Part shown: piece after piece, positions 8,877-56,599 of the stretch
Layout of the letters: the number at the start of each line of letters is the position of its first letter
How positions within the stretch are numbered: the first letter of the stretch is position 1
Assembly (NCBI GenBank): GCA_963714035.1
Contig: OY970224.1
Span: forward strand, 2,549,831 to 2,613,830
Direction of reading: 5' to 3'
DNA: 64,000 nt
DNA from: an uncultured Acidobacteriota bacterium
GTDB taxonomy: Bacteria > Acidobacteriota > Thermoanaerobaculia > UBA5066 > DATFVB01
Made by a program: the position numbers and the translations under genes
Notes under the pieces: model-generated
What the model saw: the letters and a program-made list of their open reading frames with translations, nothing else
What the model was told of the DNA's origin: nothing
The model's database searches: none

Positions 8877-9089
8877 ATGGGCAGTCCGCCGGGAGGTGGG
8901 GACGTGGACGAACGCCATCGGGCGATCCTCGAGCGGATCGGAAAGCTCGCCGGGGAGCTCTTCGAGCTCTCCGCCCGGGCCGGCGAATCCGTTCCCGAGG
9001 AAGATCTTGCCATCCTGACGCGGCGCCTCCAGGCGATTCGCGCAGAGATCGAACGACTCCGGGAAGAGTTTCGTTTGACGCTCAACTAG
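8877..9089 (+). CDS. Small hypothetical coiled-coil protein (70 aa)
   Basis: Track ORF, weak G-rich RBS. It is followed by a long hairpin at 9093-9180. Confidence 0.35.
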   Translation: MGSPPGGGDVDERHRAILERIGKLAGELFELSARAGESVPEEDLAILTRRLQAIRAEIERLREEFRLTLN

Positions 9090-9092
9090 TGT

Positions 9093-9180
9093 CCCGAGTC
9101 AGAAATCGCGTTCGCGTCGTTCGGAGCGCCGCGGGGCGGGATGCAAGGCGGCGCGACGGCGACGAGATTTCTGACTCGGG
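9093..9180. terminator. Long imperfect hairpin (15-bp arms CCCGAGTCAGAAATC / GATTTCTGACTCGGG, ~58-nt loop) between convergent genes
   Basis: The inverted repeat was read directly from the sequence. The loop carries the core motif CGTTCGGAGCGCCGC..GGATGC.AGGCG that recurs at 9680-9730. Confidence 0.4.
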
Positions 9181-9193
9181 ATACTGGCCCGGG

Positions 9194-9568
9194 CTACACG
9201 ACGGGGCGGTACTGGCGCACGGCGTCGAGAACCCTCGACGGATTGACGGGCTTGGCGATCATCTCGTCGACGTGGAGCTCGACCGGATCGACCCGGATCC
9301 GCTGCATCGCCGAAACCACGACGACCGGGATCGAGGCGAGGTCGGGATCGATGATCCGCGCCCGCAGGAAGCGCTCGCCGTCCATCACCGGCATCATCAG
9401 ATCGAGCAGGATCAGGGAAGGGCGAAAACCCGCCTTGATCCGATCGATCGCGTCGCGTCCGTCGGTGGCGCCGACGGCATTCACGCCTTCACTGTCGAGA
9501 AGCAGGACGAGCGCCTCGCGCACGTCGTCGTCGTCCTCGACCACCAGAACGTCGAAAGGGTCGGTCAC
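9194..9568 (-). CDS. Single-domain response regulator (CheY-like receiver)
   Basis: DVLVVEDDDDVRE...LILLDLMMPVMDG... The receiver-domain acidic pocket and phospho-acceptor Asp context are present. Confidence 0.8.
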   Translation of the reverse strand: MTDPFDVLVVEDDDDVREALVLLLDSEGVNAVGATDGRDAIDRIKAGFRPSLILLDLMMPVMDGERFLRARIIDPDLASIPVVVVSAMQRIRVDPVELHVDEMIAKPVNPSRVLDAVRQYRPVV

Positions 9569-9654
9569 CGTGGGGAAATCTTAGCAAGAATCCCCGTCGA
9601 TACCGGGGGCGACTCATGATTGCCGGGCAGGTAGCGCAAGACCGGACGGGACAC

Positions 9655-9931
9655 TAGCAGGCTGCTGAAAAACCGCACGGGTCGCGTTCGGAGCGCCGCC
9701 GAGCCGGATGCGAGGCGACCGCGACGCAGGCGATGCCGGAGTATCGTCGAGGAGCGGCAACGAAGCAGACGGCCCGGCGCCGCCCGAACCCTTTGGGCGC
9801 CCGTACATTGTGAACGATCTCGGCGTTGCTCGTCGAGTCCGATCGCTTTGGCATCTGTCCTCTCCTCGCGCCTTGATTTCGTTCACAAGCCACTGGCGCG
9901 CGATCCGCGGGGTTTTTCAGCAGCCTGCTAG
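9655..9931. repeat. 277-bp element bounded by perfect 21-bp terminal inverted repeats (CTAGCAGGCTGCTGAAAAACC / GGTTTTTCAGCAGCCTGCTAG)
   Basis: Both arms were read directly. The interior shares a ~45-nt core with the loop of the 9093-9180 hairpin. MITE-like. Confidence 0.5.
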
Positions 9932-10584
9932 GACGTGGCGCTGGCGAGAAGCTTCTGAATTCGCGTCGTCGCGCAGGGACGGCAGTATTTGTATTGTCGG
10001 ATCGGCACGACGCGCCCGTACGCGCGGCAGGTGCGACAACGGCCCATTCCCGGCTCGCGGCGCAGTCTTCGGCCATGGGGGTCGGGGACCTCCTCGACCG
10101 TCATCAGGACCTTGAGACCGCGGTACCCGCCCGTCAGCTGAAGCACCTCGCCGAGGCAACGGAAGCAGACGCGAGCTCCCAGGCAGCGGAAGAGAGCGCT
10201 CGCCCGCGTGGAACAACGGCCGCAGAGGTGGGCGTCCCCGCCCGCTTCCCCGCGATCCGGCGAGGAGGCGACCCCGACCGGACGCGCGAAGGCCCTCGGA
10301 TGTTCCAGGAACGATTTCCAGTGGGGGCATTCGCGGCGATGAGCTTCGTCGATGAAATCGTTGGCGAGGCTCGTGCGCGCTTCGTTGACGGGATAGGACC
10401 CGAATTCGCGGCGCAACCCGAATCCGCATCGCTCGCAGAAGATCCCCCGGGAGCTCGGCCCATCGACTCCGGCGAGAACGCCGGTCGCCGACGCGACGTC
10501 GGCGACGCTTTCCCAGTCGCTGTCCGACCAGCTCTCGACGTTTTCGCGGAAGAGATCACCGTCCGAAATCGGGAGGCTTTTCAT
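9928..10584 (-). CDS. Cys-rich hypothetical protein (multiple CxxC pairs)
   Basis: GGGGGGGAAAGC RBS upstream of the ATG. 218 aa with CERCG, CGRC, CFRC, CRTC, CRPC motifs. Divergent from the zinc-ribbon repeat gene. Confidence 0.5.
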   Translation of the reverse strand: MKSLPISDGDLFRENVESWSDSDWESVADVASATGVLAGVDGPSSRGIFCERCGFGLRREFGSYPVNEARTSLANDFIDEAHRRECPHWKSFLEHPRAFARPVGVASSPDRGEAGGDAHLCGRCSTRASALFRCLGARVCFRCLGEVLQLTGGYRGLKVLMTVEEVPDPHGRRLRREPGMGRCRTCRAYGRVVPIRQYKYCRPCATTRIQKLLASATS

Positions 10585-10790
10585 GCTGCTTTCCCCCCCG
10601 CGCGCGGGTCTCCGACCCCCCCCGCCGCACGCGTCATCTTACCGTCGGAATCCGGGGGAGCGATGCGTGGCGAAAAGCAAAAATCGCGCCACAGGCCGGA
10701 CGCTCGAATTCGTTGATTCCCGACGGGAACGGCGGCCGAGCGGGTGGTAGGATTCAGGCAATCTCTGTTTTGGAAACGTGGAGGAGAGCC

Positions 10791-11177
10791 ATGAATACAT
10801 CCGGTAAGTGTCCGAACCCCCGCGGCTGCGACGGCGAGCTCTACGCCCGCGCGGACGCTTCGGGCGAGGAATGGTGTCCCAAGTGCGGCTACCTGCTTCG
10901 CGCCGGCCAGCCGGCGACCCCGGCCCGTCACTGTCCGAATCCCGCGGGCTGCAACGGAGAGCTGTACGCGCGTGCGGATTCCTCCGGAGAGGAATGGTGC
11001 CCGAAGTGCGGGTTCGAGCTGCGCGCCGGCGGGTCGGCGTCATCGCGCCGCCGATGCCCGAACCCGCGGGGCTGCGACGGCGAGCTCTACGCCCGCGCCG
11101 ATGCGACCGGCGAGGAGTGGTGCCCCACCTGCGGATACGTCTTCCGCGCCCCCGTGACTGTGCGGCGCCCCTTCTGA
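10791..11177 (+). CDS. Triple tandem zinc-ribbon repeat protein (3 x CPNPxGCxGELYARADxxGEEWCPxCG)
   Basis: GGAGGAGAG RBS then ATG. There are three ~123-bp tandem nucleotide repeats, each encoding a 4-Cys ribbon. Confidence 0.6.
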   Translation: MNTSGKCPNPRGCDGELYARADASGEEWCPKCGYLLRAGQPATPARHCPNPAGCNGELYARADSSGEEWCPKCGFELRAGGSASSRRRCPNPRGCDGELYARADATGEEWCPTCGYVFRAPVTVRRPF

Positions 11178-11204
11178 CGGCCGGCCTCGTTCATGGCGGC
11201 GATT

Positions 11205-11360
11205 CTCCGCCGCGTTTTCGGCGGCGTTCCCTCGCCGCGTTTTCGGCGGCGTTCCCTCGCCGCGTTCCTCGCGGCGTTCTTCCGCCGCGTTCCTCGCGGC
11301 GTTCTTCCGCCGCGTTCCTGGCGGCGTCTCCCCCGCCGCGTTCTTCCTCAGTGGCGGGGA
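11205..11360. repeat. Tandem array of ~25-bp units (GCCGCGTT[C/T]..CGGCGGCGTTC.., ~6 copies)
   Basis: Direct repeats are visible in the sequence between convergent genes. There are no unique spacers, so this is not CRISPR. Confidence 0.6.
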
Positions 11361-11560
11361 TGTCGAGGCGGGTCGTCCCGAAGATCCGCCTCCGCCGGCT
11401 TCCGGGTGCCGGCCGTCTTGCCGTCGGGCACGCGCGCTCCTTGCGAAGTCTCTCGATCGCGATCGGGGTGATCCGAATCGAACGTGTCGTGTTCCGCGCC
11501 GGTTTCTTCGTCGTCTCTCATGCACCCTCCACAGGCGTCCTGCAGCAGGCCGCGTGCCAC
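11348..11560 (-). CDS. Small acidic hypothetical ORF downstream of the biosynthetic operon (70 aa)
   Basis: GTG start preceded by GAAGGAG. Translation VARGLLQDACGGCMRDDEETGAEHDTFDSDHPDRD... It could be spurious. Confidence 0.2.
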   Translation of the reverse strand: MARGLLQDACGGCMRDDEETGAEHDTFDSDHPDRDRETSQGARVPDGKTAGTRKPAEADLRDDPPRHPRH

Positions 11561-11674
11561 CCGCCTTCGCTCCTTCGGAGCTACGGCGTGACTTGCCCGC
11601 TTTCCTCCTTTGCATGTTCGGCGTGACCCGTCCGCTTCGCGCGTTCGGCGCCACCGGGTAACGCGCCGCGAAGG

Positions 11675-13207
11675 CTAATCCGGCCCGAATCCGCTTCTGG
11701 CCAGAAGCGCGTCGATCTCGGTCGCAGAGGCGTCGAGCTTTTCCGCCGCCGCGCGGAGATCGTCCGCCACGACCGGATACCAGTTCCGACGGGAAGGATC
11801 GAGGAGTCCCGCCACGTTCCACGGCTCGATCTCGCGCCGCACGGACTCCGTCAATCCCGCCGCAGAAGCCTCGCGGGCTTCGGCGAGGGATCGCCCGATC
11901 GCCGAGCGGAGAAGCGGACGATCGGAGCCGAGGAACCCGGGAATCGCGTCGCGCCCGAGCCGGCAGGAGGCTTCCCCGAAACTCGCCGCGGCGAAGTAGA
12001 GCATCGTCGCCGCGCAGAACGCCGGGAAATCATCGAAGCGTTTCCAGAGCGCGGCGACGAGCTCCGCCGCCGTGTCCGCCTCGTCCAGCGTACGGTCCGC
12101 GAGGGCGGCGAGGCGCCGATCGAGGTCCTCGTCGTCCCCCGCTTGTTCGAGGGCTTCGCCGGCGCGCGCCACGCCGAGAAGCGTCAGGGGTATGCCCGTC
12201 GAGAGGAGCGGATCCACGAAGGCGGCGGCCGACGGGAGCATCCACCACCCCGGACCGGAAGCCGCGGCCGTCCGGAACGCGGGGTTCCCGGAAAAGCGAA
12301 ACGGCGAGAGGATCTCCGCCTGCCGGAACTGCCGCCGGATCGCCGGAAACATCGCGATCAGGCGGCGCCACGCCGGCTCGCCCTCCTCCGCCCGCACCTC
12401 GCGGGCGAGGTCGGGAGCGAGCATCGCTCCCGCGCTCACGGTCCCTTCCGAGAACCGGAGCACCCAGATCCACCCGCCCTCGAAGACGTGATGGAGCGCG
12501 GCGTCGTCGACCGGATAGGGAGACCGCTCGGAAAGTGGCGACGTCTCCGCCATCGTCGCGACGCTGCGAAAATGGGTGTAGAGCGCGGCCGTCCGCGGAA
12601 GGCCGCGGAAGTCGCTTTCCGGCAGACCGAGGGCCCGGTGGAGGAAACCCCGCGGCCCGGAGGCGTCGGCCACCCGTCGCGCGTCCACGGACACGCGCGC
12701 CGCGCCGCGCCGGCCGGACAGGCGAACGACCTTCCCGTCGCCGTCGAAGGCGTCGAGGGCGACGCGATCGACGTACTCGGCGCCCGCCGCACGCGCCCGT
12801 TCGAGGAAATGGAGATCGACGTCCGCGCGATACCAGTGCGTGTCGGCGACCCGGGCGTTCGGGCTCGCCGCGACGAGAAGGGGATTGCGCGGGTTGCCGT
12901 CGGCCGGCTCCGCTCCGCGGCGGTGATGGTAGAAGGTGAAGCCGCGCTTGATGCCGCCTTTCACGTTCGGGAAGGCGGCCTGCCAGGTTCCCCATTTCGC
13001 GAAAGGAAGGATTTCCGGGAGGTCGTAGCGAAGCGCGATCCGTTCGAGGAGGAGGTTCGCGAGCGGGGACGTCGACTCGCCGATCGCAAATCGCGGGTGG
13101 GCGTCCTTCTCGAGCAGGACGACGCTCCGGCCGAGACGCCGGGCGACGAGCGCGAGGAGCGAGCCGCCGAACCCCGAGCCGACGATCGCGAGGTCGAACC
13201 GCTTCAT
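11675..13207 (-). CDS. FAD-dependent oxidoreductase, flavin-dependent halogenase-like
   Basis: N-terminal GxGxxG (AIVGSGFGGS), AIGESTSP (cf. halogenase GVGEAT) and GGWIWVL (cf. WxWxIP). Start ATG overlaps the rSAM stop (ATGA). Confidence 0.6.
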   Translation of the reverse strand: MKRFDLAIVGSGFGGSLLALVARRLGRSVVLLEKDAHPRFAIGESTSPLANLLLERIALRYDLPEILPFAKWGTWQAAFPNVKGGIKRGFTFYHHRRGAEPADGNPRNPLLVAASPNARVADTHWYRADVDLHFLERARAAGAEYVDRVALDAFDGDGKVVRLSGRRGAARVSVDARRVADASGPRGFLHRALGLPESDFRGLPRTAALYTHFRSVATMAETSPLSERSPYPVDDAALHHVFEGGWIWVLRFSEGTVSAGAMLAPDLAREVRAEEGEPAWRRLIAMFPAIRRQFRQAEILSPFRFSGNPAFRTAAASGPGWWMLPSAAAFVDPLLSTGIPLTLLGVARAGEALEQAGDDEDLDRRLAALADRTLDEADTAAELVAALWKRFDDFPAFCAATMLYFAAASFGEASCRLGRDAIPGFLGSDRPLLRSAIGRSLAEAREASAAGLTESVRREIEPWNVAGLLDPSRRNWYPVVADDLRAAAEKLDASATEIDALLARSGFGPD

Positions 13208-14118
13208 GGCGGCGCGGCCGCGGAGGGCCGGCAGCGGCACGACACGGGCGAGAGCGCGCCGGTCGCGTTCAGGCGGGCGAGAGCGGCCGCGCGCTCCTCC
13301 CGGCAGGAATCGCAGCCGGGAAGCCGCGGGAGGGACCCGAGCTCCGCGAGGACGACGGCGCCTCCTTCGGCGGCGCAGGCGGCGACGACGTCGAAGTAGG
13401 CTCCGAGCTCGATCTCGGAGAAGTCGCCGGCCGCGCGGAGCCGCTCCATCGGCTCGTGCTCCGAAACGACGGGAAGGAGCGAAACGACCCGCGCTCCGGC
13501 GTCGCGCGCGAGCCGGAACGTCTCGAGCGCGAGGTCGAACGCGCGCGCCGGCGCGACGAACGGCGGCTGGACGAGGACGAAGGCCCGGAGCGAGATTCCG
13601 CTCCTGGCGAGCTCCCGCGCCGCCTTCCGGAACCGTTCGATCGACGTCGGCTTCCCGAGCCGGCGAAGCAGGGAGTCGTCCGCGACCTCGAGACCGATCG
13701 CGACTTCGAGCCCGCCCCGGAGGAGGGAACGGAACGCGGAAGCGCGCCCCGCCTGCTCCGAGCGCGATTCGACGACCACGAGCTCGAGGTCGGCGACCTC
13801 GGCGGCGATCGCGGCGAGATCCCCGGCGGTCTGGCGGATCGACCGCGGCTCGAAGAGCGACGACCCGTTGTACAGCTTGAGACCGGCGACGTCGCCGAGG
13901 CGCGCGCGGGCGGAGCGGATCTGGCGCGCGATCCCGACACCGTCGGCGGCGCCGGGCGACGCCTGCCGGTAGAGCGCGCAGTAGACGCAGGCGAGCGGGC
14001 ACGCGCCGTTTCGCAGGTAGGCCGTTCCGATCACCTGCGGCGTTCCGCCGGGAAAGATCTCGATCTCGCGCGCGATCGCGGCCGGGGGCTCGTCCGGCGC
14101 GCCCGCGCCGGGATTCAT
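13204..14118 (-). CDS. Radical SAM enzyme
   Basis: Start MNPGAGAP. CPLACVYC = CxxxCxxC radical-SAM motif near the N-terminus. C-terminal extra Cys residues (CDSC, CRCRP). ATGA overlap with the upstream asnB-like stop. Confidence 0.6.
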   Translation of the reverse strand: MNPGAGAPDEPPAAIAREIEIFPGGTPQVIGTAYLRNGACPLACVYCALYRQASPGAADGVGIARQIRSARARLGDVAGLKLYNGSSLFEPRSIRQTAGDLAAIAAEVADLELVVVESRSEQAGRASAFRSLLRGGLEVAIGLEVADDSLLRRLGKPTSIERFRKAARELARSGISLRAFVLVQPPFVAPARAFDLALETFRLARDAGARVVSLLPVVSEHEPMERLRAAGDFSEIELGAYFDVVAACAAEGGAVVLAELGSLPRLPGCDSCREERAAALARLNATGALSPVSCRCRPSAAAPP

Positions 14119-15503
14119 GCGAAGGCGGGGAAGGGGAGCGCTCCCGGCTCGCGGCGCTCCGGATCCTCCGCGGGAACCGGTCCGAATCGCTTCTCGTGGA
14201 TCGCGCGGAGCTCCGCGCGAGACGCGGCGAGCGCGCGGAAATGCTCCGGAGACACGGCGCCGTGCTGAAACCGACGTTTTTCCGCGATCGGCAGCCGCAC
14301 GCCCCGCGATTCGAGGCCCGCTTCGACGACCCGGCGCTTGAGCGCCGCGAGGCGTTCCGGATCTTCTCCGACGAGCTCGCGCAGAGGCGCGGCGAGCGCG
14401 GCCGCGATCGCCGGGCGCATCGCGTGCGGGGAGAGCGCCCGGAAGCCGAACGCGCGGGCCGGCGCGAACCCGCGGGTCACGCCGCGGGAGAACCCGCCCG
14501 AATACGTGAGCGAATGTTTGATCGATTCGATTCCCCACCCCTCGTGGTAGAGGAGCGGGTTGTTCAGAACGCTCTTGATCGTCAGCTCCGAGTCCCCCAG
14601 CGGATACGACTTCCAGTTCTCGTCTCCCCCGTCGCCATCGAAGAGCGCGACGAGGTCCGGCTCCGCCCGCCGGAGGTTCCGCGCGAACGCCATGGCCGCC
14701 GCCGCGCACTGCACGTCGAGCGGGCGGTAGTCCTCGATCGCCGCGACGGCCGCGGGGAGCGACAGGTCTTCCGGCGACGCTTCGACCGTCCGCCAGGAGT
14801 CCAGAGCGCCGAGCGCGCCGGCGACCTCCCGGGCGGAGCGCGCGTCCTCGGCGTCGCCGACGGCGAGCGTGAACAGGCGGACGCGCTCTCCGCGGCCGGC
14901 GGCCCGCGCGGCCGAAAGGACCGCCCACGCGGTGAGCGAGGAGTCCGTGCCCCCCGAGAGCGCGACGCCAATTTTCTCCTCGGCGGGGATCTCGCGAAGG
15001 ATCGCGGCCGCCGTCTCCTCGATCGCCGCGACGTAGCGCTCTCCCAGCGCCCGGGGATCCGCGGCGCCGCGCCCCGCCTCGGGCGCGAAGAAGCGCCGGT
15101 AACGCGGGTTCGGGTCCGGGCAGCCGATCTGGTCGAGCTCGACCATGTGATGGGCCGGCACCATGCGCGTGTACGAGGGATGGAACTGCTCGGAGATTTC
15201 CTGCTCGGCGCAGTACCGGCCGATCGCGTCGATCCGATCCGCCACGACGAGATAGGGCCCCGTCGAGCGCTTGGCGACGAAGTAGCGGAGGGGCCGCCCG
15301 ATCGTGCGCGCGAGACGGATCGTGACGCCCTCCTGCGCGACGGCGGCGAACGCGCCTCCGATTCCGGCGAGCGCCTCGACGTCGCCCACTCGCAGAGCGC
15401 CTGTCAGCTCCTCGCGCGTGCCGCCGATGAGGACGTCGGCGGAAGGATCGGAGAGGTCGACGAGTTTCGGTTCGGTGAGTCCGGGCGTGAACGGGAACGG
15501 CAT
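14115..15503 (-). CDS. Asparagine synthetase-like ATP pyrophosphatase (AsnB C-domain homologue lacking the glutaminase Cys; lasso-cyclase/beta-lactam-synthetase-like)
   Basis: SGGTDSS PP-loop motif. No N-terminal Cys2. 462 aa. Confidence 0.65.
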   Translation of the reverse strand: MPFPFTPGLTEPKLVDLSDPSADVLIGGTREELTGALRVGDVEALAGIGGAFAAVAQEGVTIRLARTIGRPLRYFVAKRSTGPYLVVADRIDAIGRYCAEQEISEQFHPSYTRMVPAHHMVELDQIGCPDPNPRYRRFFAPEAGRGAADPRALGERYVAAIEETAAAILREIPAEEKIGVALSGGTDSSLTAWAVLSAARAAGRGERVRLFTLAVGDAEDARSAREVAGALGALDSWRTVEASPEDLSLPAAVAAIEDYRPLDVQCAAAAMAFARNLRRAEPDLVALFDGDGGDENWKSYPLGDSELTIKSVLNNPLLYHEGWGIESIKHSLTYSGGFSRGVTRGFAPARAFGFRALSPHAMRPAIAAALAAPLRELVGEDPERLAALKRRVVEAGLESRGVRLPIAEKRRFQHGAVSPEHFRALAASRAELRAIHEKRFGPVPAEDPERREPGALPFPAFA

Positions 15504-15571
15504 GGGCGCCTCCGAGCGCAGATCCTACCGCGCCCTTCGCGGCGAGGTTGACCCGCCGGGGAGAACGGCGC

Positions 15572-15585
15572 GATCCTCGAGGATC
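15572..15585. promoter_or_regulatory. Perfect 14-bp palindrome GATCCTCGAGGATC in the 154-bp gap between the peptide gene and the asnB-like gene
   Basis: Read directly from the sequence. A possible operator or attenuator. Confidence 0.3.
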
Positions 15586-15657
15586 CCGAATGGGAAGCAC
15601 GATGAAGCGCGGCGAGGCGCGCCCGTAGTCGCTCGATGTATCGCCGCGTTTGCTACT

Positions 15658-15867
15658 TCAGGCGCGGCGCCGGGTGACCATGCATATATCCGGCGAGTCG
15701 TCTTCCTTCGTCCGACGGTGGAGGTATCGCGTGGAGTCGCCGCCGGGTCCCTGGGACTGCTTGAGCCCGTTGCGGCCGCAGGCCGGGCAGATCGCGATGA
15801 CGCCGCTGCGGTTGTCGACGGTTTCGCCGAACTCCAAACCGGTGTAATCGAATTCCTCGGAAGCCAC
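15658..15867 (-). CDS. Small peptide gene (69 aa), candidate precursor peptide of the downstream modification operon
   Basis: GGAGGTG RBS with 7-nt spacer to the GTG start. Translation MASEEFDYTGLEFGETVDNRSGVIAICPACGRNGLKQSQGPGGDSTRYLHRRTKEDDSPDICMVTRRRA. It is hidden inside a long antisense ORF of the PQQ-dehydrogenase gene. Confidence 0.45.
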   Translation of the reverse strand: MASEEFDYTGLEFGETVDNRSGVIAICPACGRNGLKQSQGPGGDSTRYLHRRTKEDDSPDICMVTRRRA

Positions 15868-15993
15868 GCTCGCACCTCCGGAACCGATGGGGGACCGAGA
15901 CGATGGCGGGATTGTAGCACCGTGCGGCATCGGCCTTGCACCCTCGGAGCCCACGTTCCGGTGTGGTCCGGAACGACCTCGGAGGGAGACACG

Positions 15994-18900
15994 GTGCTTT
16001 TCCGAAGCCGATACCGGATTCTCGCCGGCCTGGCGTTTTCGCTGGCCGCCGCTTTCCCGCGCCCCTTGGCCGCCCAGAGCGAGACGCTTCCGCCCGGCTT
16101 TCACGACTCGATCGTGATCAGCGGCCTCATTCGCCCGACGGTCGTCCGTTTTTCTCCGGACGGGCGGATCTTCGTGGCCGAGAAGAGCGGAATCGTGAAG
16201 GTGTTTCCGAGCCTCACCGCGACGACGCCGACGATCTTCGCGGACCTGACCACCAACGTGGACAACTACTGGGACCGCGGCTTGCTCGGGATGGCGCTCG
16301 ATCCGGCATTTCCCTCGAACCCCTACGTCTACGTTCTTTATGCGTACGACGCTCCGATCGGCGGAACGGCGCCGGTCTGGAACGACGGGTGTCCCACGCC
16401 GCCGGGACCCAACACCGACGGCTGCGTCATCAGCGGACGGCTCTCCCGGCTGACCGCGAACGGGAACGTGATGACGGGCGCGGAAAACGTCCTGATCAAC
16501 GCCTGGGGGCAGCAGTTCCCCAGCCACTCTCTCGGCGCGCTCCAGTTCGGCGCGGACGGCGCCCTGTACGCGAGCGACGGCGACGGCGCGAGCATGGGGA
16601 CCGTGGATTACGGCCAGTTCGGCGGGAACCCGCTCGGCGACCCTCCGGGCGGGGTCGGCGGAACGATGCAGCCCCCCTGGGCCGAGGGAGGAGCGCTTCG
16701 CGCCCAGAGCCTGCGCCGCCAACCGGGCGAGCCCGCGGTGTTGAACGGAACGGTCGTCCGGGTCGATCCCTCGACCGGCAACGGCCTTCCCGACAATCCG
16801 CTCGCGTCGAGCTCCGATCCGAACGCGCGCCGGATCGTCGCCGAGGGCCTCCGGCAGCCGTTCCGCTTCACGTTCCAACCGAACACGAACAAGCTCTGGA
16901 TCGGCGACGTGGGCAACGAGGTCTGGGAAGAGATCGACGTCGCGCCGAGCCCCACGAGCGAGGTCCGGAATTTCGGCTGGCCGTGCTACGAAGGTCCGGA
17001 CCAGGAGCCCGACTGGGTCAGCGCTCAGGTCAACATCTGCATGAACGATCTCTACAAGAATCCGTCGGTCGTGACGGCCCCTTTTCTCGGGTACCGCCAC
17101 AGCGACAGCGTGGTCTCCGGCGACGGCTGCGCGACGGGCGGCTCGTCGATCACCGGGATGGCGTTCTACAACGGCGGGAGCTACCCGTCCCAGTACGACG
17201 GAGCGCTCTTCTTCGCCGATCACACCCGGAACTGCGCCTGGGTGCTCTTCCCGGACGCGAGCGGCCAGCCGAACGCGTCGAACCGCGCCCTCTTCATCGG
17301 CGCCGCGTCCTATCCCGTGGACCTCGAGATCGGTCCCGGCGGCGATCTCTTCTACGTCGATCACGAAGGGGGAGCCATCCACCGCATCCAGTACATGACT
17401 CCCGCGGCCCTCGCGACGGCGACGCCGCAGTCCGGCGCGCCGCCGCTCTCGGTGCAGTTCGACGGCAGCGGGTCTCACGGAGCTTCCCCGGGCGACACGC
17501 TGACATACGCCTGGGACCTGACCGGCGACGGCCTCTTCAACGATTCGACCGCAGTATCGCCCGCGAAAACCTTTTCGGTCGCCGGGCAGTACACGGTGCG
17601 GCTGAAGGTCACCGACGAGCACGGCGTCTCGGGGGTGAGCGATCCGCTGACGGTGACCGTCTCGCAGGGCGCGCCGTCGCCCGTGATCGACGCGCCGGCG
17701 TCCTCGCTGACCTGGAAGGTCGGAGACCCGATCTCGTTCTCCGGACACGCGACCGATCCGCAGGACGGCGCGCTCCCGGCGTCGGCCCTGACGTGGACGC
17801 TCATCATGCATCACTGCCCGTCCAACTGTCACACGCACGAGATCCAGACGTTCGCCGGCGTTTCGAGCGGATCCTTTTCCGCGCCCGATCACGGCTACCC
17901 GTCGTTCCTGGAGCTCCAGCTGACCGCCACCGATTCACTCGGGCTCACCGGCACGACGAGCGTCCTCCTCCAACCGAAGACGGTGGTCCTGAAATTCGCC
18001 GCGTCCCCTTCCGGACTGCTCCTGGATGCGGGCAACGGGAAGATCGCGACGCCGTTCTCGGAGACGGTGATCGTCGGTTCGACGAACACGATCAGCGCGG
18101 CGTCCCCCGAGAGCCTGAACGGATCGGCCTACTGGTTCGACGGGTGGTCCGATAGCGGGGCGCAGACGCACTCGATCGTCGCGGGCGCGGGCTCCGTCAC
18201 GTACACCGCCACGTACATATCCCAGGGGGACGTCATGGCCCCTCAAAGCGCGATGGTGGAAGGAAGGTCGCCGTATCCGCCCTCGACGACCGAGCCCAAC
18301 GGCGTGGCCGAGTCGGGCGAGACGGTGCCCTTCGCTCCCTCCTGGAAGAACACCAGCGACGGCACGGTCGCCGGAACGACGGGCACGATCACGTCGTTCA
18401 CCGGGCCCGCCGGCGGAGGGGCGGCGTACACGGTGGTAGAGGGAAACGCCTCGTACGGGGACATCGCGGCGGGCGCGACGGCGTCGGCCACGGGATACCA
18501 GCTCAAGGTGACGGCGAACGCGCGGCCGGCCGACCACTGGGACGCCACGGTTTCCGAGGCGCTCGACACCTCGGAAGCGCACGACTGGACGCTGCACATC
18601 GGCAGGAGTTTCAGCGACGTGCCACCGGCGAACACCTTCTATTCGGACATCGAGACGATCCTGCACCACGGGGTGACCGTCGGCTACGGGAACCGCGTCT
18701 TCGGACCGCTGGATACCACGCCGCGGGACCAGATGAGCGCTTTCATTTCGCGGGCGCACACCGGCGGCGACCAGAACGTGCCGGTGTCGGGATCGGTGCC
18801 CGGGCTCGGGACGTACAACTGCAAGTCGGGCGGCCACAGCCTGTTTTCCGACGTCGCGCCGACCGCGGAATTCTGCAAGAACATCCACTGGATCGTGGCG

Positions 18901-19263
18901 CACGGGCTGTCCTACGGCTGCACCGACGGCACGCAGTTCGGCTCGACGTTCTGTCCGTCCACGACGATGACCCGTCGAACCATGGCGGTCATGATCGCCC
19001 GCGATCTGGCCGGCGGCGACTCCTCCGTGCCCTCAAAGCTCGCCGATCCCGGCAACGGCCGCGGCTACGACTGCACCGACGGCGGCGCCAACGCATTCTC
19101 CGACGTTCCCGATTCCGACGCCGCCTGCAAATACATCTATTTCATCTGGTCCAAGAACGTCGTGGACGGGTACGCCAACGGACAGTACGGACCGGAGAAC
19201 TCCGTCGAGCGCGGCGAGATGGCGAAATACCTCACGAACGCCTACAACCTCACGCTTCAGTAG
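15994..19263 (+). CDS. Large secreted PQQ-dependent sugar (glucose/sorbosone) dehydrogenase-like beta-propeller protein with PKD domain and three C-terminal SLH domains
   Basis: GGAGGGAG RBS then GTG. Signal peptide. SGDH-like motifs (IRPTVVRFSPDGRIFVAEKSG). PKD-like segment (TYAWDLTGDG). Three SLH-like repeats (F.D....W..). Confidence 0.65.
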   Translation: MLFRSRYRILAGLAFSLAAAFPRPLAAQSETLPPGFHDSIVISGLIRPTVVRFSPDGRIFVAEKSGIVKVFPSLTATTPTIFADLTTNVDNYWDRGLLGMALDPAFPSNPYVYVLYAYDAPIGGTAPVWNDGCPTPPGPNTDGCVISGRLSRLTANGNVMTGAENVLINAWGQQFPSHSLGALQFGADGALYASDGDGASMGTVDYGQFGGNPLGDPPGGVGGTMQPPWAEGGALRAQSLRRQPGEPAVLNGTVVRVDPSTGNGLPDNPLASSSDPNARRIVAEGLRQPFRFTFQPNTNKLWIGDVGNEVWEEIDVAPSPTSEVRNFGWPCYEGPDQEPDWVSAQVNICMNDLYKNPSVVTAPFLGYRHSDSVVSGDGCATGGSSITGMAFYNGGSYPSQYDGALFFADHTRNCAWVLFPDASGQPNASNRALFIGAASYPVDLEIGPGGDLFYVDHEGGAIHRIQYMTPAALATATPQSGAPPLSVQFDGSGSHGASPGDTLTYAWDLTGDGLFNDSTAVSPAKTFSVAGQYTVRLKVTDEHGVSGVSDPLTVTVSQGAPSPVIDAPASSLTWKVGDPISFSGHATDPQDGALPASALTWTLIMHHCPSNCHTHEIQTFAGVSSGSFSAPDHGYPSFLELQLTATDSLGLTGTTSVLLQPKTVVLKFAASPSGLLLDAGNGKIATPFSETVIVGSTNTISAASPESLNGSAYWFDGWSDSGAQTHSIVAGAGSVTYTATYISQGDVMAPQSAMVEGRSPYPPSTTEPNGVAESGETVPFAPSWKNTSDGTVAGTTGTITSFTGPAGGGAAYTVVEGNASYGDIAAGATASATGYQLKVTANARPADHWDATVSEALDTSEAHDWTLHIGRSFSDVPPANTFYSDIETILHHGVTVGYGNRVFGPLDTTPRDQMSAFISRAHTGGDQNVPVSGSVPGLGTYNCKSGGHSLFSDVAPTAEFCKNIHWIVAHGLSYGCTDGTQFGSTFCPSTTMTRRTMAVMIARDLAGGDSSVPSKLADPGNGRGYDCTDGGANAFSDVPDSDAACKYIYFIWSKNVVDGYANGQYGPENSVERGEMAKYLTNAYNLTLQ

Positions 19264-47700: not shown

Positions 47701-48005
47701 CATCCGCCAATTCCATCCTCGGCGTTGGCTTGATCTCAAACCGATTGACACGGCGGGGGCGGCGTGAGGCGAGGGTATTGGATGAGAGACCCGAAAGATG
47801 TGGCGTACGGTGCCCGCCTGCCCCCAAAGTTCACCACTCCCGATGGGAAGGTCGTGGGGTAGGATTTGTCCACAATCTGGGAGGCACGCATGCCCGTCCC
47901 ACAACTGGGTCAGCTGAAGAAGGCCGATCTCCGAACGATGAGGGTCGCGAGATGAGATTAGTTTATGGAACGACTTGGGTCTTAGCCGCCTAGTCTCCTT
48001 AAGAA

Positions 48006-49721
48006 ATGACTGAGCTAGCTTGGGTCGGAAAGAAGGCGGTCGAGAACCATCATCGGGAGGTTCCATACCGACTCCTGAAGTGCGATCCATCGCTCTCCGT
48101 GGGTGACCCGGAGGACGGCAACCTCCTTGTCGAGGGAGACAATCTCGAAGCCCTGAAGGCCTTACTTCCCTTCTATCGCGGCCAGGTCAAGTGCATCTAC
48201 ATCGACCCGCCGTACAACACCGGTCAGGACGAGCGCGACTCCGAAGGGCGCAGGACGGGGTGGATCTATAGCGACAACCTCAATAGCCCAGAGATACGTG
48301 AGTGGCTTGGACGCGTAGTGGGGAGTGAGGCCGACGATCTTTCCCGGCACGATAAGTGGCTCTGCATGATGTATCCAAGACTCTCTCTCCTTAAGGACTT
48401 CCTGCGTTTGGACGGCGCACTCTTCGCCAGCATCGACGAAAATGAGTATGCCAACTTGCGAGCCTTACTCGACGAGATATTTGGAATCAGGAACCGGGTT
48501 GGAACTATCGTGTGGAAGAACGCTACGGACAATAACCCCACAAATATCTCTCTGGAGCACGAGTACGTTCTTTGCTATGCGCGGGACAAGGCCCACCTTC
48601 CTGCGGAGTGGAAGTCAGAAACACTCGCGGTAAAACAGCGGCTCTTGAAGGTCTCGCAAGATTTCCTTGACTCGTTTCCCGACTCGGCTGATCGACAACG
48701 GGCATATTCGACTTGGCTCCGCGACAATAAGGCCTACCTCTGGCCCCTTCAGGACTACAAGTTCATCGACGATGGCGGGGTATTCACTGGGATGCGAGCC
48801 GTGCACAACCCCGGCAAAGAAGGTTACCGATACGACGTCATCCATCCGCGAACCGGCAAGCCATGTGCCCAGCCGTTGATGGGATACCGTTTCCCCGAAG
48901 AAACGATGAAACGACTCCTTGGAGAGGGACGAATTATTTTCGGCGAAGACGAAAGCAAGATCGTCGAACTGAAGGTGTATGTTAAGGAGTACCGGGCGAA
49001 ACTCTCAAGCGTCTTCGAGTTGGACGGTCGCGTGGGGACAAATGAGCTCAAGGAGATCTTTCCAGAGAATCGGCGTCCGTTCGACTTTCCGAAGCCCACA
49101 GCCTTGATCGAGGAACTCATCAGCTTCACGTCGACCGAAGACGATCTTATCCTTGATTCGTTTGCCGGAAGTGGAACCACCGGGCACGCAGTCCTTAAGC
49201 TTAATAAAGCGGATGGAAAGCGCCGCAGGTTCATCCTCGTTGAAATGAAGCCGGAGATCTCGCGTGAAATCACCGCGGAACGCGTGAAGCGCGTCGCTGA
49301 GGGCTACGTTAACGCAAAGGGTGACCGGATCGAGGGCCTGGGGGGTGGCTTCCGATATTGCAGGCTTGGGGACGGGCTCTTTAGTTCGGACGGCCAGATC
49401 ACGGACTCGGTCTCGTTTGCCGATCTTGCACGCCACGTCTTTTTCGTGACGACCGGTCAGCCGTCTCAAAACGGCGGCAAGAAATCCAGCCCGTTCATAG
49501 GTGCCCACGGCGAGACAGCCGTCTACCTCCTCTACAACGGAATACTCGGCGACAGACGACCAGGAAGCGGCAACGTGCTCACTGGAAGGGTTCTAGCAGA
49601 ACTCCCTGAGCATTCTGGCCGGCGAGTGGTTTTCGGGGAGGCAACGACGCTGTCGCGGGCGCGTCTTCGTCGTGAAAACGTCGAGTTCCGGCAGATCCCA
49701 TACGACGTGAGGTCCTGCTAA
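48006..49721 (+). CDS. mod: Type III restriction-modification system methyltransferase (Mod; N6-adenine, beta class)
   Basis: Motif IV IYIDPPYNTG precedes motif I FAGSGTTG. Region GC content visibly lower than flanks. Confidence 0.8.
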   Translation: MTELAWVGKKAVENHHREVPYRLLKCDPSLSVGDPEDGNLLVEGDNLEALKALLPFYRGQVKCIYIDPPYNTGQDERDSEGRRTGWIYSDNLNSPEIREWLGRVVGSEADDLSRHDKWLCMMYPRLSLLKDFLRLDGALFASIDENEYANLRALLDEIFGIRNRVGTIVWKNATDNNPTNISLEHEYVLCYARDKAHLPAEWKSETLAVKQRLLKVSQDFLDSFPDSADRQRAYSTWLRDNKAYLWPLQDYKFIDDGGVFTGMRAVHNPGKEGYRYDVIHPRTGKPCAQPLMGYRFPEETMKRLLGEGRIIFGEDESKIVELKVYVKEYRAKLSSVFELDGRVGTNELKEIFPENRRPFDFPKPTALIEELISFTSTEDDLILDSFAGSGTTGHAVLKLNKADGKRRRFILVEMKPEISREITAERVKRVAEGYVNAKGDRIEGLGGGFRYCRLGDGLFSSDGQITDSVSFADLARHVFFVTTGQPSQNGGKKSSPFIGAHGETAVYLLYNGILGDRRPGSGNVLTGRVLAELPEHSGRRVVFGEATTLSRARLRRENVEFRQIPYDVRSC

Positions 49722-52310
49722 GTGGAGCTCAAGGGCTACCAGTCTCGTTCGCTGGAACGGCTGGGCGACTTCCTTACGAAAGCCAAGGAAAGAAACCCGA
49801 AACTCGCTTTTATTGAGATGACCGAGAGGCCGTATGTAACCGCGGCGCTCCCGGCAGAACTTCGAGATATACCCTACGTCTGTGTGCGCGTCCCGACGGG
49901 CGGTGGAAAGACGTTCATGGCCACTCACGCGATCCCCATCGCGGCAAAGCGATATCTCGAGCGCGAATATCCTCTGACTGTCTGGCTGGCTCCCACAAAT
50001 ACGATCGTCTCTCAAACGCTCCGAGCCTTGAAGAACCCAAGGCATCCTTATCGGCAAGTGTTGGATGGTGCTTTCGCCGGGAACGTTTCGCTTATGACAC
50101 TAGTTGAGGCGCTGTCGGTCACGCCTTCGACGATCGCTGGTAGCGCAACCGTTATCGTGTCAACGCTCGCCGGCCTTAGGACCGAAGACACCGACGGCCG
50201 AAGAGTGTATGAGCAGAACGGTGCTCTTCAGGCCCATTTTTCCGAGCTAACTGCCGGGGAGCGAGCGAGGCTCGAACGAGACGGCGATGGGCTTGCGTCG
50301 ATGAGTCTTGCTAACGTCTTGCGTCTCCACCGCCCGCTCGTAATCGCCGATGAGGCGCACAATGCGCGAACCGCCCTATCCTTCGAGATGTTTAGACGGA
50401 TCGCGCCCGCCGCGATCGTGGAGTTCACGGCGACGCCGGACCAGGAACGGAACCCAAGCAATGTGCTCTGCCATGTCTCCGCCTTAGAACTGAAGGCGGA
50501 GAAGATGATCAAGTTGCCAATTCGGCTCGTGACGCGCGAAGAGTGGCGGGACGCCGTCACTGACGCGATTGGGAAGGTCGAGGGGCTTCAAGAGGCGGCA
50601 AACGAGGTGCAAAGGGAGACCGGGGAATACATCCGTCCGATCGTCCTCCTTCAAGCGCAGCCGAGGAACGAGACGCGGGAAACAGTTACGATCGAAGTTC
50701 TGAAGGCCTCTCTCATCAAGGACTTTCGGGTCCCTGAAGACCAGATTGCGGTAGCGACCGGCGAAACGGACGACCTCCCCGATGACATCCTCGACCCCTC
50801 GTGCCCGGTACGCTTCGTCCTTACGGTACAAAAGCTTCGTGAGGGATGGGATTGCCCGTTCGCCTATGTCCTCTGCAGCGTGTCTCACATCTCAACAGCA
50901 AGGTCGGTTGAGCAGGTGCTGGGCCGGATTCTTCGCATGCCGCGCGCCGAGACCAAGAGCCGGGAAGAACTGAACCGGGCATATGCCTTTGTCACATCCT
51001 CGGATTTCTCCGGAGCGGCCCGATCCCTGGAGGACGCGCTCGTCGAAAGCGGGTTCGAGAGATTTGAGGCTGCAAAAATGATCGAAGGCGGCCCTCCCCC
51101 CCTGTTCCCATTTCCGGAAATCGTCGTCGACGAGGAATTTGAAGAGGCGCCAAGGATCGATCGGCTCTCGGCGAGCCTTCGAAACCGCCTCCGTATCGAA
51201 AATAACCCGTCGGGTTCGGGCGCGCGGGTCGTTTACACAGGCCCAGGCCTGACTGGCCTTGAGGAACGAGAATTGTGCTCGGCAGCTCATGGCGATACCG
51301 GCATGGTGTCTGCGATCAAACTCGCCAGAAAGAGCCGTGGCCAACCAGTCTTTCCCGCTGCGATGGGTGTCGAGCTTTCGATTCCTCAACTTTCGATTCG
51401 CATGGGCAATAGGCTCGAGCTATTTGAGGACCAATTTGCGGGCGTGCCACCCGAACTCGACCCGGAGGATGCGAAGTTGGACGACGACGCCTTCCCTCGA
51501 TACGAAGGGCCAAGACCGGCGCTGGACATCGACATCGACGACCGCGGTTCGGTTGCCGGCTCCGTTCAGTCCGTTGTGTTCGATCGCCCATTGCCGTATT
51601 TTGGTCTCGGTCAGCCGACCCCGGCGGCGCTGGCGGTCTGGCTAGACCGAAACATCCCTCATCCGCTGGTTCCCGCGAGGAAGAGTGAGCCGTTTATGAG
51701 GGAGGTCATCGAATACCTCACAGCTGGGAGAGGCATACCGTTTGAGGAGCTCAAGGCTTCGCAGTTTCGGCTTCGCGACGCCGTTGAGCGTCGGCTGACC
51801 CAGATTCAAGACAAGGCGCGCGGACAGGCTTTCCTTGAGTTTGTTGAGGCAAGCGGGGCGGCCAGCCTCACGGTCGATCCTTCGATCTGTTTCTCGTTTG
51901 ACCGGAATGGCTATCCCGCCAACCAGCTTTACACCGCGACGACGTTCCGAAATCACTACTACGAGCGCCCGGGAGACATGAATGCAGAGGAGGCCAACTG
52001 TGCCCTCACCATCGATTCACTTCGGGAGATTGACGTGTGGGTTAGAAACCTGGAACGGCGGGAGAGGTTTTCTTTTTGGCTTCCGACCTCGACCGATCGC
52101 TTCTATCCCGATTTTGTTGGTCGGTTAAGGGACGGCCGGTTTCTGGTGGTCGAGTACAAGGGCGCTCACCTCATGGACACTTCGGATACCAGAGAAAAGA
52201 AAATGGTCGGCGAGCTGTGGCAGGAAAAGAGTCAGGGAAAATGCCTTTTTCTTCTCGTTGGAGGAGACACCTTGAGTCGGATAGCTCTTGCGGCTCGTTC
52301 TGCCCGGTGA
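49722..52310 (+). CDS. res: Type III restriction endonuclease Res subunit (SF2 helicase-nuclease)
   Basis: GTG start directly after the mod stop. Walker A PTGGGKTF, DEAH-box IADEAHN, helicase C-terminal motifs. Confidence 0.8.
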   Translation: MELKGYQSRSLERLGDFLTKAKERNPKLAFIEMTERPYVTAALPAELRDIPYVCVRVPTGGGKTFMATHAIPIAAKRYLEREYPLTVWLAPTNTIVSQTLRALKNPRHPYRQVLDGAFAGNVSLMTLVEALSVTPSTIAGSATVIVSTLAGLRTEDTDGRRVYEQNGALQAHFSELTAGERARLERDGDGLASMSLANVLRLHRPLVIADEAHNARTALSFEMFRRIAPAAIVEFTATPDQERNPSNVLCHVSALELKAEKMIKLPIRLVTREEWRDAVTDAIGKVEGLQEAANEVQRETGEYIRPIVLLQAQPRNETRETVTIEVLKASLIKDFRVPEDQIAVATGETDDLPDDILDPSCPVRFVLTVQKLREGWDCPFAYVLCSVSHISTARSVEQVLGRILRMPRAETKSREELNRAYAFVTSSDFSGAARSLEDALVESGFERFEAAKMIEGGPPPLFPFPEIVVDEEFEEAPRIDRLSASLRNRLRIENNPSGSGARVVYTGPGLTGLEERELCSAAHGDTGMVSAIKLARKSRGQPVFPAAMGVELSIPQLSIRMGNRLELFEDQFAGVPPELDPEDAKLDDDAFPRYEGPRPALDIDIDDRGSVAGSVQSVVFDRPLPYFGLGQPTPAALAVWLDRNIPHPLVPARKSEPFMREVIEYLTAGRGIPFEELKASQFRLRDAVERRLTQIQDKARGQAFLEFVEASGAASLTVDPSICFSFDRNGYPANQLYTATTFRNHYYERPGDMNAEEANCALTIDSLREIDVWVRNLERRERFSFWLPTSTDRFYPDFVGRLRDGRFLVVEYKGAHLMDTSDTREKKMVGELWQEKSQGKCLFLLVGGDTLSRIALAARSAR

Positions 52311-52357
52311 CATGACGAAGCGCCGCCCCCGCGTGGGCCGGTTACGATAGGTCACCG

Positions 52358-55786: not shown

Positions 55787-55875
55787 CACCAACATGACCA
55801 TTAGAAGAACTATGAAGCCAGACTGCACCACGAGTGCGCGCCTCTAGACTGGGAGGAACGGAAAGGAGTGGGAGG

Positions 55876-56580
55876 ATGACGGAATTCTGGGATCCCTTCT
55901 GCGGTTACTATACACAGCCTCTCCTCGAGGTAAATCGTGAAATCGAAAAGTGGAGCACTGAGAATAGCGTCCACAACTATGCCTCGACAACATTGCATTT
56001 TGAGAGAATTCTCGGGAAGCTCGAGGGAGATCGCGCGGGAAGACTGCTTATACTCTTGGAGTCGCCATCCACACCGTTTCCAGTTCAGAGCTGCGACTCA
56101 GATCCACAGGACGAAGGCAACGGAGCATTTCGCTACTTTTGCTTAACTGCTGGTGACTGGGAGATGCTTCGCCTGGAGAAGCTAGGGCCACGACCAAAAT
56201 GGCCGTCGGAATTTGACAATGAAGCGTATTGGGCCGCCTATGCAAGAAGCTTGGCAGACCTTCCGTACAATGGGCTGATTGCGTTCGTGTTATGGCGCCT
56301 CATGCCCGCTGCGGCCTACGTTACGAATCTTTTTAAAAGCCCGAAGGGCCGCGTTCCGGAGAGCTTCTTTGCTAGGGAGTTCGGGTACTTTCGGCCGACG
56401 AAGGTGTTGAGTCTGACGCCGACTTACGTAAAAACTGTCGAGCAGCTGGCGCAGCATCTAGGCAACGCTTTCAGCCTAAAGGAAATCAGATTTGACTATT
56501 CGTGGCATCCTACCTCTCGAAAGAGTTCTGCAGAACGAAGCGGCCGCCTGAAATCAGCCTTAGCCGCCCTCGCGGATTGA
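55876..56580 (+). CDS. Hypothetical protein, low-GC (island cargo)
   Basis: GGGAGG RBS then ATG (MTEFWDPFCGYY...). AT-rich codon usage unlike the host. No recognisable motifs. Confidence 0.5.
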   Translation: MTEFWDPFCGYYTQPLLEVNREIEKWSTENSVHNYASTTLHFERILGKLEGDRAGRLLILLESPSTPFPVQSCDSDPQDEGNGAFRYFCLTAGDWEMLRLEKLGPRPKWPSEFDNEAYWAAYARSLADLPYNGLIAFVLWRLMPAAAYVTNLFKSPKGRVPESFFAREFGYFRPTKVLSLTPTYVKTVEQLAQHLGNAFSLKEIRFDYSWHPTSRKSSAERSGRLKSALAALAD

Positions 56581-56599
56581 TGCGGCGCCTCTGGGGGCG

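Follow-up and report, generated by a model that had tools for sequence, protein, structure and literature searches.

Several described enzyme systems resemble parts of the locus analyzed here. Beta-lactam and carbapenam synthetases have a two-domain asparagine synthetase (AsnB) fold with a PP-loop ATP site and have lost the catalytic Cys, and lasso cyclases (the C proteins) are likewise AsnB-fold, ATP-dependent and amide-forming enzymes with no glutaminase function. AsnB-like enzymes that act on peptides include lasso cyclases, TsrC, and PesC in nitrilobacillins (PMC13060819). The archaeal radical-SAM enzyme RaSEA works with a C-N bond-forming partner, ArcS, and PltM (phloroglucinol halogenase) and CtcP (tetracycline 7-halogenase) are halogenases of small molecules. 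What is new at our locus is that three well-known enzyme superfamilies are joined in one operon: the combination of an AsnB-like enzyme, a radical-SAM enzyme and a halogenase is described neither in curated families nor in the searchable literature; the original prediction had likewise placed it in no described RiPP class.

The window (a 64,000-nucleotide stretch from an uncultured Acidobacteriota bacterium) encodes the three enzymes on the minus strand. The operon starts with the gene of an AsnB-like synthetase (14115-15503; 462 aa, GC3 0.88), followed by a radical-SAM gene (13204-14118; 304 aa) and a gene for a flavin-dependent halogenase homolog (11675-13207; 510 aa). Each downstream start overlaps the preceding stop in an ATGA, at exactly 14115-14118 and 13204-13207, and GC3 is uniform across the three genes (0.85-0.91). 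Because of these overlaps and the uniform GC3, we are fairly confident that the trio is a translationally coupled three-enzyme operon, with an uncharacterised function. The original prediction had described four genes chained by overlaps, the first of them encoding the peptide of a candidate RiPP-type cluster. Its sequence-level details (coordinates, both ATGA overlaps, motifs, a GGAGGTG, a 154-nt gap and a palindrome) were all reproduced, and the chain holds only for the three enzyme genes, the small gene standing apart as its own unit. None of the three enzymes reaches a curated NCBIfam cutoff, and none of the four locus proteins matched a PADLOC anti-phage defence model.

The AsnB-like protein matches Pfam Asn_synthase over residues 167-307 (1e-12), carries the PP-loop SGGTDSS at residue 183, and begins with MPFPFT, with no Cys2, so that its earlier identification as an AsnB-domain homologue without the glutaminase Cys stands. 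Cys2 is missing in 119 of 120 homologs, and SGGxDS is kept in 119 of 120. According to its AlphaFold model (pLDDT 82), the protein is predicted to have the full two-domain asparagine-synthetase/beta-lactam-synthetase fold with the PP-loop intact. Foldseek against the PDB ranked beta-lactam synthetase 1mc1 first (6e-14, ~470 columns aligned), followed by AsnB, human ASNS, CarA and TsnB9, with both domains aligned, and the fold matches 1ct9 and ASNS. The N-terminal Ntn-type domain is degenerate and lacks the Cys nucleophile, and since this Cys is missing family-wide, the protein cannot hydrolyse glutamine. With only 41 bits against the cutoff of 267 for the top NCBIfam match (asn_synth_AEB), it is not an equivalog of glutamine-dependent AsnB (TIGR01536). 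Unlike its best structural match, to which it is only ~19% identical, it has no clavulanate or carbapenem context, has a radical-SAM partner and occurs in hundreds of non-actinobacterial species. A lasso cyclase identity was also rejected: the cyclase model NF033561 does not match the window's protein at E <= 0.1, and within the family 13 of 18 members are matched weakly (best 3.9e-6), less well than by AsnB models.

The radical-SAM protein (Pfam Radical_SAM, 2.5e-8) has its CxxxCxxC motif as CPLACVYC at residue 40, as had been read from the sequence earlier, and three conserved C-terminal cysteines (C269, C272 and C294). Among curated families it comes closest to archaeal RaSEA (TIGR01210), the best match in 27 of 27 members, at 58 bits for the window's protein against a cutoff of 212; the enzyme is a member of a sister group to archaeal RaSEA. 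It is not RaSEA proper, being bacterial, far below the cutoff and without an ArcS/PUA gene in the neighborhood, and it is not a SPASM/twitch, RRE-dependent RiPP maturase, as no SPASM, twitch or RRE domain was found in it. As for RaSEA, its gene is accompanied by that of an enzyme that forms C-N bonds, here AsnB-like instead of ArcS. This resemblance brings in a nucleic-acid or 7-deazapurine modification similar to archaeosine synthesis, in which the PP-loop enzyme would activate a carboxylate that belongs to a nucleoside or base, and nitrogen transfer would be finished by the RaSEA-like enzyme. We consider this very unlikely, given the low TIGR01210 score, the lack of ArcS, TGT, QueD/E and of PUA/THUMP and other tRNA-related domains in the enzymes or their neighbors, and the halogenase that is often attached, a partner that to our knowledge has no precedent in nucleic-acid modification.

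By sequence, the third enzyme is a putative PltM/CtcP-type flavin-dependent halogenase (Pfam Trp_halogenase, 5e-9); searching PDB sequences gave PltM (1.1e-42) and tetracycline 7-halogenase (3e-40) over ~410 residues. It has the FAD motif GxGxxG in common with them (GSGFGG at residue 10), and it contains the AIGESTSP and GWIWVL that had led to its first annotation as halogenase-like, which we confirmed. The catalytic Lys87 of PltM is aligned to K87 (in GIKRGF), and every one of 31 operon-linked homologs has Lys at this position. In place of the WxWxIP of PltM and CtcP it has WIWVLR (WxWxLR family-wide; both Trp conserved, I to L and P to R), and its gene sits in the AsnB-like/radical-SAM operon rather than in a pyoluteorin or tetracycline pathway. 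Its NCBIfam matches all fall well short of their cutoffs (CmlS, for example, at 74 bits where 900 are required).

The operon is widely distributed. AsnB-like homologs fall into more than 7,900 clusters, the family itself being compact (just 99 representatives pass E <= 1e-30 among 1.84 billion clusters), and the gene is found in at least 563 GTDB species-representative genomes of six or more phyla, with loci in Acidobacteriota, Armatimonadota, Planctomycetota, Verrucomicrobiota, Bacteroidota and Rhodothermales. Of 74 informative loci, 55 have the radical-SAM gene next after the AsnB-like gene, and 32 of 65 have a halogenase gene downstream in the same order. The conserved core is the AsnB-like/radical-SAM pair, and the halogenase is a frequent accessory. 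The three-enzyme operon is conserved in six or more phyla at 43-50% identity and is likely to be ancient or widely transferred. It has no consistent association with a carrier protein, a transporter or a regulator, and neither a riboswitch (Rfam) nor a pathway-specific neighbor (neighborhood domains) points to a metabolite.

One alternative is that the pair, with or without the flavoenzyme, matures a larger protein encoded elsewhere or nearby, e.g. a secreted beta-propeller, or forms a protein-derived cofactor as QhpD/QhpG and LodB/GoxB do. Genes of the FG-GAP/UnbV_ASPIC type are neighbors of the operon in 22 of 80 loci, which come from five or more phyla, and in Bacteroidota they lie directly upstream on the same strand; in the window's clade the divergent neighbor is a secreted GSDH/PKD/SLH beta-propeller gene; the strong conservation of the AsnB-like protein would suit a conserved macromolecular substrate; and the flavoenzyme also matches the protein-cofactor maturases QhpG (7e-18) and GoxB (3e-12). 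However, the flavoenzyme is far closer to PltM/CtcP (1e-42) than to QhpG and keeps the halogenase Lys, FG-GAP/UnbV genes are absent in the window and its relatives and are multi-copy in these phyla (so that adjacency may partly reflect chance or shared synteny), and none of the candidate substrate genes accompanies the operon everywhere. We regard protein maturation as unlikely.

The small gene (15658-15867, minus strand; 69 aa) was found by the gene caller. It is the 3' end of a 744-aa ORF (15658-17892), the rest of which is antisense to a real plus-strand gene; the original prediction was right that it had been overlooked inside this artefact and that it has a GGAGGTG ribosome binding site (15873-15879), although the start codon, 5 nt further on, is GTG and not ATG. 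GC3 is 0.83 for the small gene vs 0.63 for the remainder of the ORF. The protein is 85-90% identical in the related loci L082, L083 and L085 with many synonymous changes, and pN/pS is 0.14-0.20, vs 0.22-0.38 for the AsnB-like gene. An extended -10 box (TGcTACAAT, 15911-15919, minus strand) lies further upstream, and TGnTA[CG]AAT and GGAGGTG are kept in four of four syntenic relatives while flanking bases vary. The pN/pS, the GC3 and the gene's own TGnTACAAT box establish it as a genuine gene with its own putative promoter and ribosome binding site. Its product has invariant C27, C30, H50 and C62 and is probably a zinc-binding mini-protein, of a family with 21 clusters, all Thermoanaerobaculia-like.

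Between the small gene and the AsnB-like gene lies the 154-nt 5' region of the operon (15504-15657, minus strand). It contains a -10-like TAGGAT (15522-15527, minus strand) and a GGAGG before the AsnB-like gene (15509-15513, minus strand), and GATAGGATC...GGAGG is conserved in L082, L083 and L086. The blocks GGCGATACATCGAGCGACTACGGGCGCG and CGCTTCATCGT of this gap are also found in L086, which is without the small gene. The palindrome GATCCTCGAGGATC (15572-15585) is not conserved among relatives, the RNA fold of the gap is unexceptional (z = -1.1), Rfam gave no match, and neither a consensus sigma-70 promoter nor an intrinsic terminator was detected.

In five of six close relatives examined from the window's own clade, among them L082, L083, L085 and L089, the small gene and the operon are syntenic. 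The closest relative, L086 (88% AsnB identity), does not have the small gene, no small ORF is found at the AsnB-like loci L090 or L002, and neither a profile HMM nor unbiased small-ORF clustering found homologs in 80 diverse loci of other lineages, where the operon is not accompanied by a conserved small ORF of any family. Divergent homologs occur in an unrelated context, between Metallophos and SLT genes, and within one assembly, GCA_050747885.1, the contig with the small gene (L087) is not the one with the trio (L090). Given its own box and ribosome binding site, the gap blocks in L086, these absences and the lack of linkage in GCA_050747885.1, we think it likely that the small gene is an independent, clade-restricted neighbor rather than a conserved part of the operon; a clade-specific functional link is formally conceivable.

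These observations bear directly on the RiPP cluster originally predicted, in which the 69-aa protein would be the precursor, the AsnB-like enzyme would form a macrolactam or amide, the radical-SAM enzyme would introduce a crosslink and the product would be halogenated. In its favor, the small gene is genuine, sits immediately upstream in the same orientation and is syntenic in four relatives, no terminator was detected in the gap, and AsnB-like enzymes are known to act on peptides. Against this, at least 563 species carry the operon without the peptide, whose co-occurrence with AsnB-like homologs is limited to a narrow Thermoanaerobaculia clade; the small gene and the operon have separate conserved upstream signals; and conservation is uniform along the protein, with an invariant Cys3His as in a folded mini-protein and no leader/core pattern. 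The original prediction had named missing conservation of the small ORF upstream of AsnB-like homologs as grounds for its rejection, and by that standard its RiPP reading fails. The radical-SAM protein lacks the domains of RiPP maturases, and our Pfam searches found no exporter or protease gene at the locus and no lasso B protease (transglutaminase-like), PqqD/RRE or SPASM domain in the window's genes and the syntenic contigs. Without these, and with no precursor conserved beside the enzyme and no cyclase-model match, the locus is not a canonical lasso peptide cluster, a point on which the original prediction was correct. The locus is probably not a RiPP cluster at all, and the specific scheme above appears highly improbable. 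A false RiPP lead is thereby removed, and the adjacent small ORF should not count as a precursor in genome-mining pipelines.

By analogy with known enzymes, our analysis suggests that the most probable role of the operon is to make or modify a small molecule, rather than a ribosomal peptide from the adjacent gene. In a three-step scheme whose details we offer tentatively, the AsnB-like enzyme would adenylate a substrate carboxylate and join it to an amine, either intramolecular or from a donor, giving an amide or lactam; the RaSEA-like enzyme would carry out a radical step on the adduct, which by analogy with ArcS/RaSEA may be a C-N cleavage that leaves the nitrogen behind; and the halogenase, where present, would chlorinate or brominate an electron-rich (phenol- or enol-like) position of the free substrate. 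A more speculative version, which we think rather unlikely as it stands, is that the pair is a bacterial glutaminase-independent nitrogen-transfer module, in which an amino-acid amine would be ligated to the adenylated carboxylate and the donor C-N bond cleaved, leaving a primary amide or related nitrogen function on a widely conserved metabolite; in Acidobacteriota, Rhodothermales and some Planctomycetota this metabolite would also be halogenated. If this were true, ArcS/RaSEA chemistry would reach from archaeal tRNA to a new, widespread bacterial pathway. The host phyla of the operon dominate soils and waters; what it makes may prove to be a novel metabolite or cofactor, perhaps a halogenated one, and RaSEA-type radical chemistry may have a new role in bacteria. 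Once the product is identified, thousands of genes that now bear the label 'asparagine synthase-related' would gain a function.

The window has a GC content of about 68% and long spurious ORFs abound in it; real genes were told from artefact ORFs by codon-position GC. All three minus-strand enzyme genes are real: the AsnB-like gene (14115-15503, 462 aa) has a GC3 of 0.88, the radical-SAM gene (13204-14118, 304 aa) 0.91, and the flavoenzyme gene (11675-13207, 510 aa) 0.85. The original prediction described four genes chained by ATGA stop/start overlaps; the two overlaps are exactly at 14115-14118 and 13204-13207 and chain the three enzyme genes, while the small gene (15658-15867) lies outside the chain. 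The motifs quoted for the enzymes are all present. The genes flanking the operon in the window encode a response regulator, FdhD, MoaA and a GNAT protein, none of them apparently pathway-related. Long ORFs encountered when domain fusions were sought in homologous loci were upstream-extension artefacts, and one 761-aa protein (P0300) was ruled out as a fusion (low-complexity, frameshift-like read-through).

Convergent with the halogenase gene is an ORF of about 128 aa (10791-11177, plus strand) with three tandem 41-aa zinc-ribbon repeats (repeat unit: CPNPxGCxGELYARADxxGEEWCPxCG[YF]), seen by Tandem Repeats Finder as a 123-nt x 2.7 DNA repeat. Between these two genes are about 6.4 copies of the 25-nt unit GCCGCGTTTTCGGCGGCGTTCCCTC (11184-11344), each a short GC hairpin whose loop is T-rich; the array may represent bidirectional terminators or a REP-like element. 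The zinc-ribbon gene sits between the operon and a gene (9928-10584, minus strand) whose product, about 217 aa long and rich in Cys, has several CxxC pairs and no Pfam domain. Close relatives have a syntenic counterpart downstream of their operon, at 52-65% identity (L083 9397-10050; L082 11062-11721; L089 about 11268-11921). Elsewhere in the window, 48000-58000 has a GC of 0.56-0.61 as compared to about 0.68 for the rest, and may be a horizontally acquired segment.

All three enzymes score below cutoff for every curated family. For the AsnB-like protein, Pfam covers the synthetase half only (Asn_synthase, 1e-12), and every NCBIfam match is far under cutoff (e.g. TIGR01536, 41 bits vs 267). 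With both domains of its AlphaFold model (pLDDT 82) aligned, beta-lactam synthetase is the best structural match (E 6e-14), followed by E. coli AsnB, human ASNS, carbapenam synthetase and TsnB9; lasso-cyclase models match the family weakly. The expectation of a PP-loop enzyme without the glutaminase Cys holds across the family: Cys2 is absent in 119 of 120 homologs and SGGxDS is kept in 119/120, so these are AsnB-fold adenylating enzymes that would be unable to use glutamine.

The radical-SAM protein has the anticipated CxxxCxxC motif and conserved C-terminal cysteines, and no SPASM or RRE domain was found in it. RaSEA (TIGR01210) is the best curated family for 27/27 members tested (best E 1.6e-30), and JGI names for the homologs are 'TIGR01210 family' or 'archaeosine synthase beta-subunit'. 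All members are under the TIGR01210 cutoff, the window protein being related to RaSEA yet scoring only 58 bits vs 212, and we regard a nucleic acid or deazapurine as a very unlikely target of the operon. The flavoenzyme matches PltM at 1e-42 and CtcP at 3e-40, and its K87 aligns with the catalytic Lys87 of PltM, in a column that is Lys in 31/31 operon-linked homologs. The suggestion that it is halogenase-like was correct; by these alignments it is a true flavin-dependent halogenase homolog, in whose family the WxWxIP of halogenases is replaced by a family-specific WxWxLR.

Homologs of the AsnB-like protein form more than 7,900 clusters, and among GTDB species representatives there are at least 563 loci; those listed come from Acidobacteriota, Armatimonadota, Planctomycetota, Verrucomicrobiota, Bacteroidota and Rhodothermales (43-50% identity). 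Cultured carriers include Singulisphaera sp. PoT (L022) and strains of Terracidiphilus and Chthonomonas. The family is compact: a search of 1.84 billion clusters at 50% identity gave 99 representatives at E <= 1e-30. No homolog was found in the plasmid collection. Among 80 fetched loci, the radical-SAM gene is directly 3' of the AsnB-like gene in 55 of the 74 with sufficient downstream sequence, and the halogenase gene is next in order in 32/65, adjacency counts that are not phylogenetically independent. Presence of the halogenase is patchy by group (Acidobacteriota 13/13, Rhodothermales 4/4, Planctomycetota 8/16, other Bacteroidota 0/8). Therefore, the AsnB-like/radical-SAM pair is the core and the halogenase is accessory.

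In 22/80 loci from at least five phyla (e.g. L056 2692-16909; L036, L040, L059, L060, L066, L075; also L045, L062, L065, L068, L072, L081; L022, L042, L018, L070), the operon is flanked by FG-GAP/UnbV_ASPIC (CRTAC1-family) genes, some of which encode TPR-containing forms of about 1190 aa; none is found in the window. In Bacteroidota the gene is on the same strand directly upstream, 31-59 nt from the AsnB-like start, and in Acidobacteriaceae two copies and an RnfD-like membrane protein gene are convergent, downstream of the operon.

The 69-aa ORF (15658-15867, minus strand) is, as claimed, hidden in a 744-aa antisense artefact and preceded by a GGAGGTG RBS; it starts with GTG 5 nt after this site. 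Its GC3 is 0.83, compared with 0.63 for the rest of the 744-aa ORF, which is antisense to a real plus-strand gene (15997-19263) for a secreted GSDH/PKD/SLH protein, and an independent gene caller also predicted the 69-aa ORF. It is a real protein-coding gene. Orthologs of 71-72 aa in L082, L083, L085 and L089 are 85-90% identical, and synonymous changes are abundant (pN/pS 0.14-0.20, below 0.22-0.38 for the AsnB gene). A TGnTACAAT box and the RBS are conserved upstream, promoter assignments that rest on what is conserved when four or five related contigs are compared. The family (21 clusters, Thermoanaerobaculia names only) is conserved over the whole length of the protein with C27, C30, H50 and C62 invariant, which is in line with a putative folded mini-protein that binds zinc, not with a precursor made up of leader and core.

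The small gene had been proposed to encode the precursor of a RiPP cluster, and its linkage to the operon breaks repeatedly. In the closest relative (L086, 88% AsnB identity) an acyl-CoA dehydrogenase gene is upstream and there is no small ORF; in GCA_050747885.1 the small gene is on contig 23 (L087) and the trio on contig 250 (L090), with a histidine-kinase gene 24 nt upstream of the latter. Divergent family members (P0139 and P0140) have a metallophosphoesterase gene on one side and an SLT gene on the other. Neither tBLASTn with the peptide nor a 22-member family HMM found a conserved small ORF by the operon in the 80 diverse loci, and unbiased clustering of all flanking 20-95 aa ORFs in these loci gave none either; the clusters obtained were rejected as shadows that neighbouring genes cast in an alternate frame or antisense. 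This is the outcome that the original prediction had named as refuting it. With the small ORF missing upstream of the AsnB-like gene in L086, L090 and the 80 loci, and a small protein conserved throughout with no leader/core pattern, the 69-aa product as precursor is the most improbable of the readings considered. A trans-encoded protein as substrate is unlikely, though less so.

L086, lacking the small ORF, keeps the GATAGGATC...GGAGG motif along with sequence blocks of the window's 154-nt gap (15504-15657), which places this gap with the operon. The palindrome GATCCTCGAGGATC is located at 15572-15585; because it is not conserved in relatives, it was set aside as a functional element. A riboswitch or leader RNA in the gap was rejected (no Rfam match; fold z = -1.1): scanning 9000-17000 against Rfam gave only two sub-threshold chance matches, including malK-III RNA at 9661-9751 on the plus strand (25.6 bits vs a gathering score of 50, E 0.031; probably chance). 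A consensus promoter/terminator scan of the gap found nothing. The corresponding gaps in L082 (5701-6000) and L083 (4708-4941) hold short, AT-richer repeats (GAAATCCGAAAT type) that the window's gap lacks.

The trio is a biosynthetic operon of known superfamilies in an undescribed combination: in agreement with the original prediction, full-text literature searches found no description of it, and PADLOC defence-system models gave no match. A recent survey ties lasso cyclases, TsrC, ScdTA and PesC, all PF00733 enzymes, to RiPP elements and contains no operon like the trio (PMC13060819). We consider it probable that the target of this conserved operon is not the small protein encoded beside it and is most likely a small molecule; free phenolics are the substrates of PltM-type halogenases, which favours such a target by analogy. 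Beta-lactam synthetase and lasso cyclases join an adenylated carboxylate to an amine, and the AsnB-fold enzyme, without glutaminase, would either do likewise, with an amine of the substrate or of a donor, or use free ammonia. Its obligate-looking partner, the radical-SAM protein, is related to RaSEA. Archaeal RaSEA complexes with lysine-transferring ArcS and turns the lysine adduct into the amidine (PMC11298593). By analogy to RaSEA/ArcS, the pair might add nitrogen taken from an amino-acid donor and then break a C-N bond by radical chemistry, a specific mechanism that we offer only tentatively. The RiPP claim falls, and what remains is a widespread pathway.
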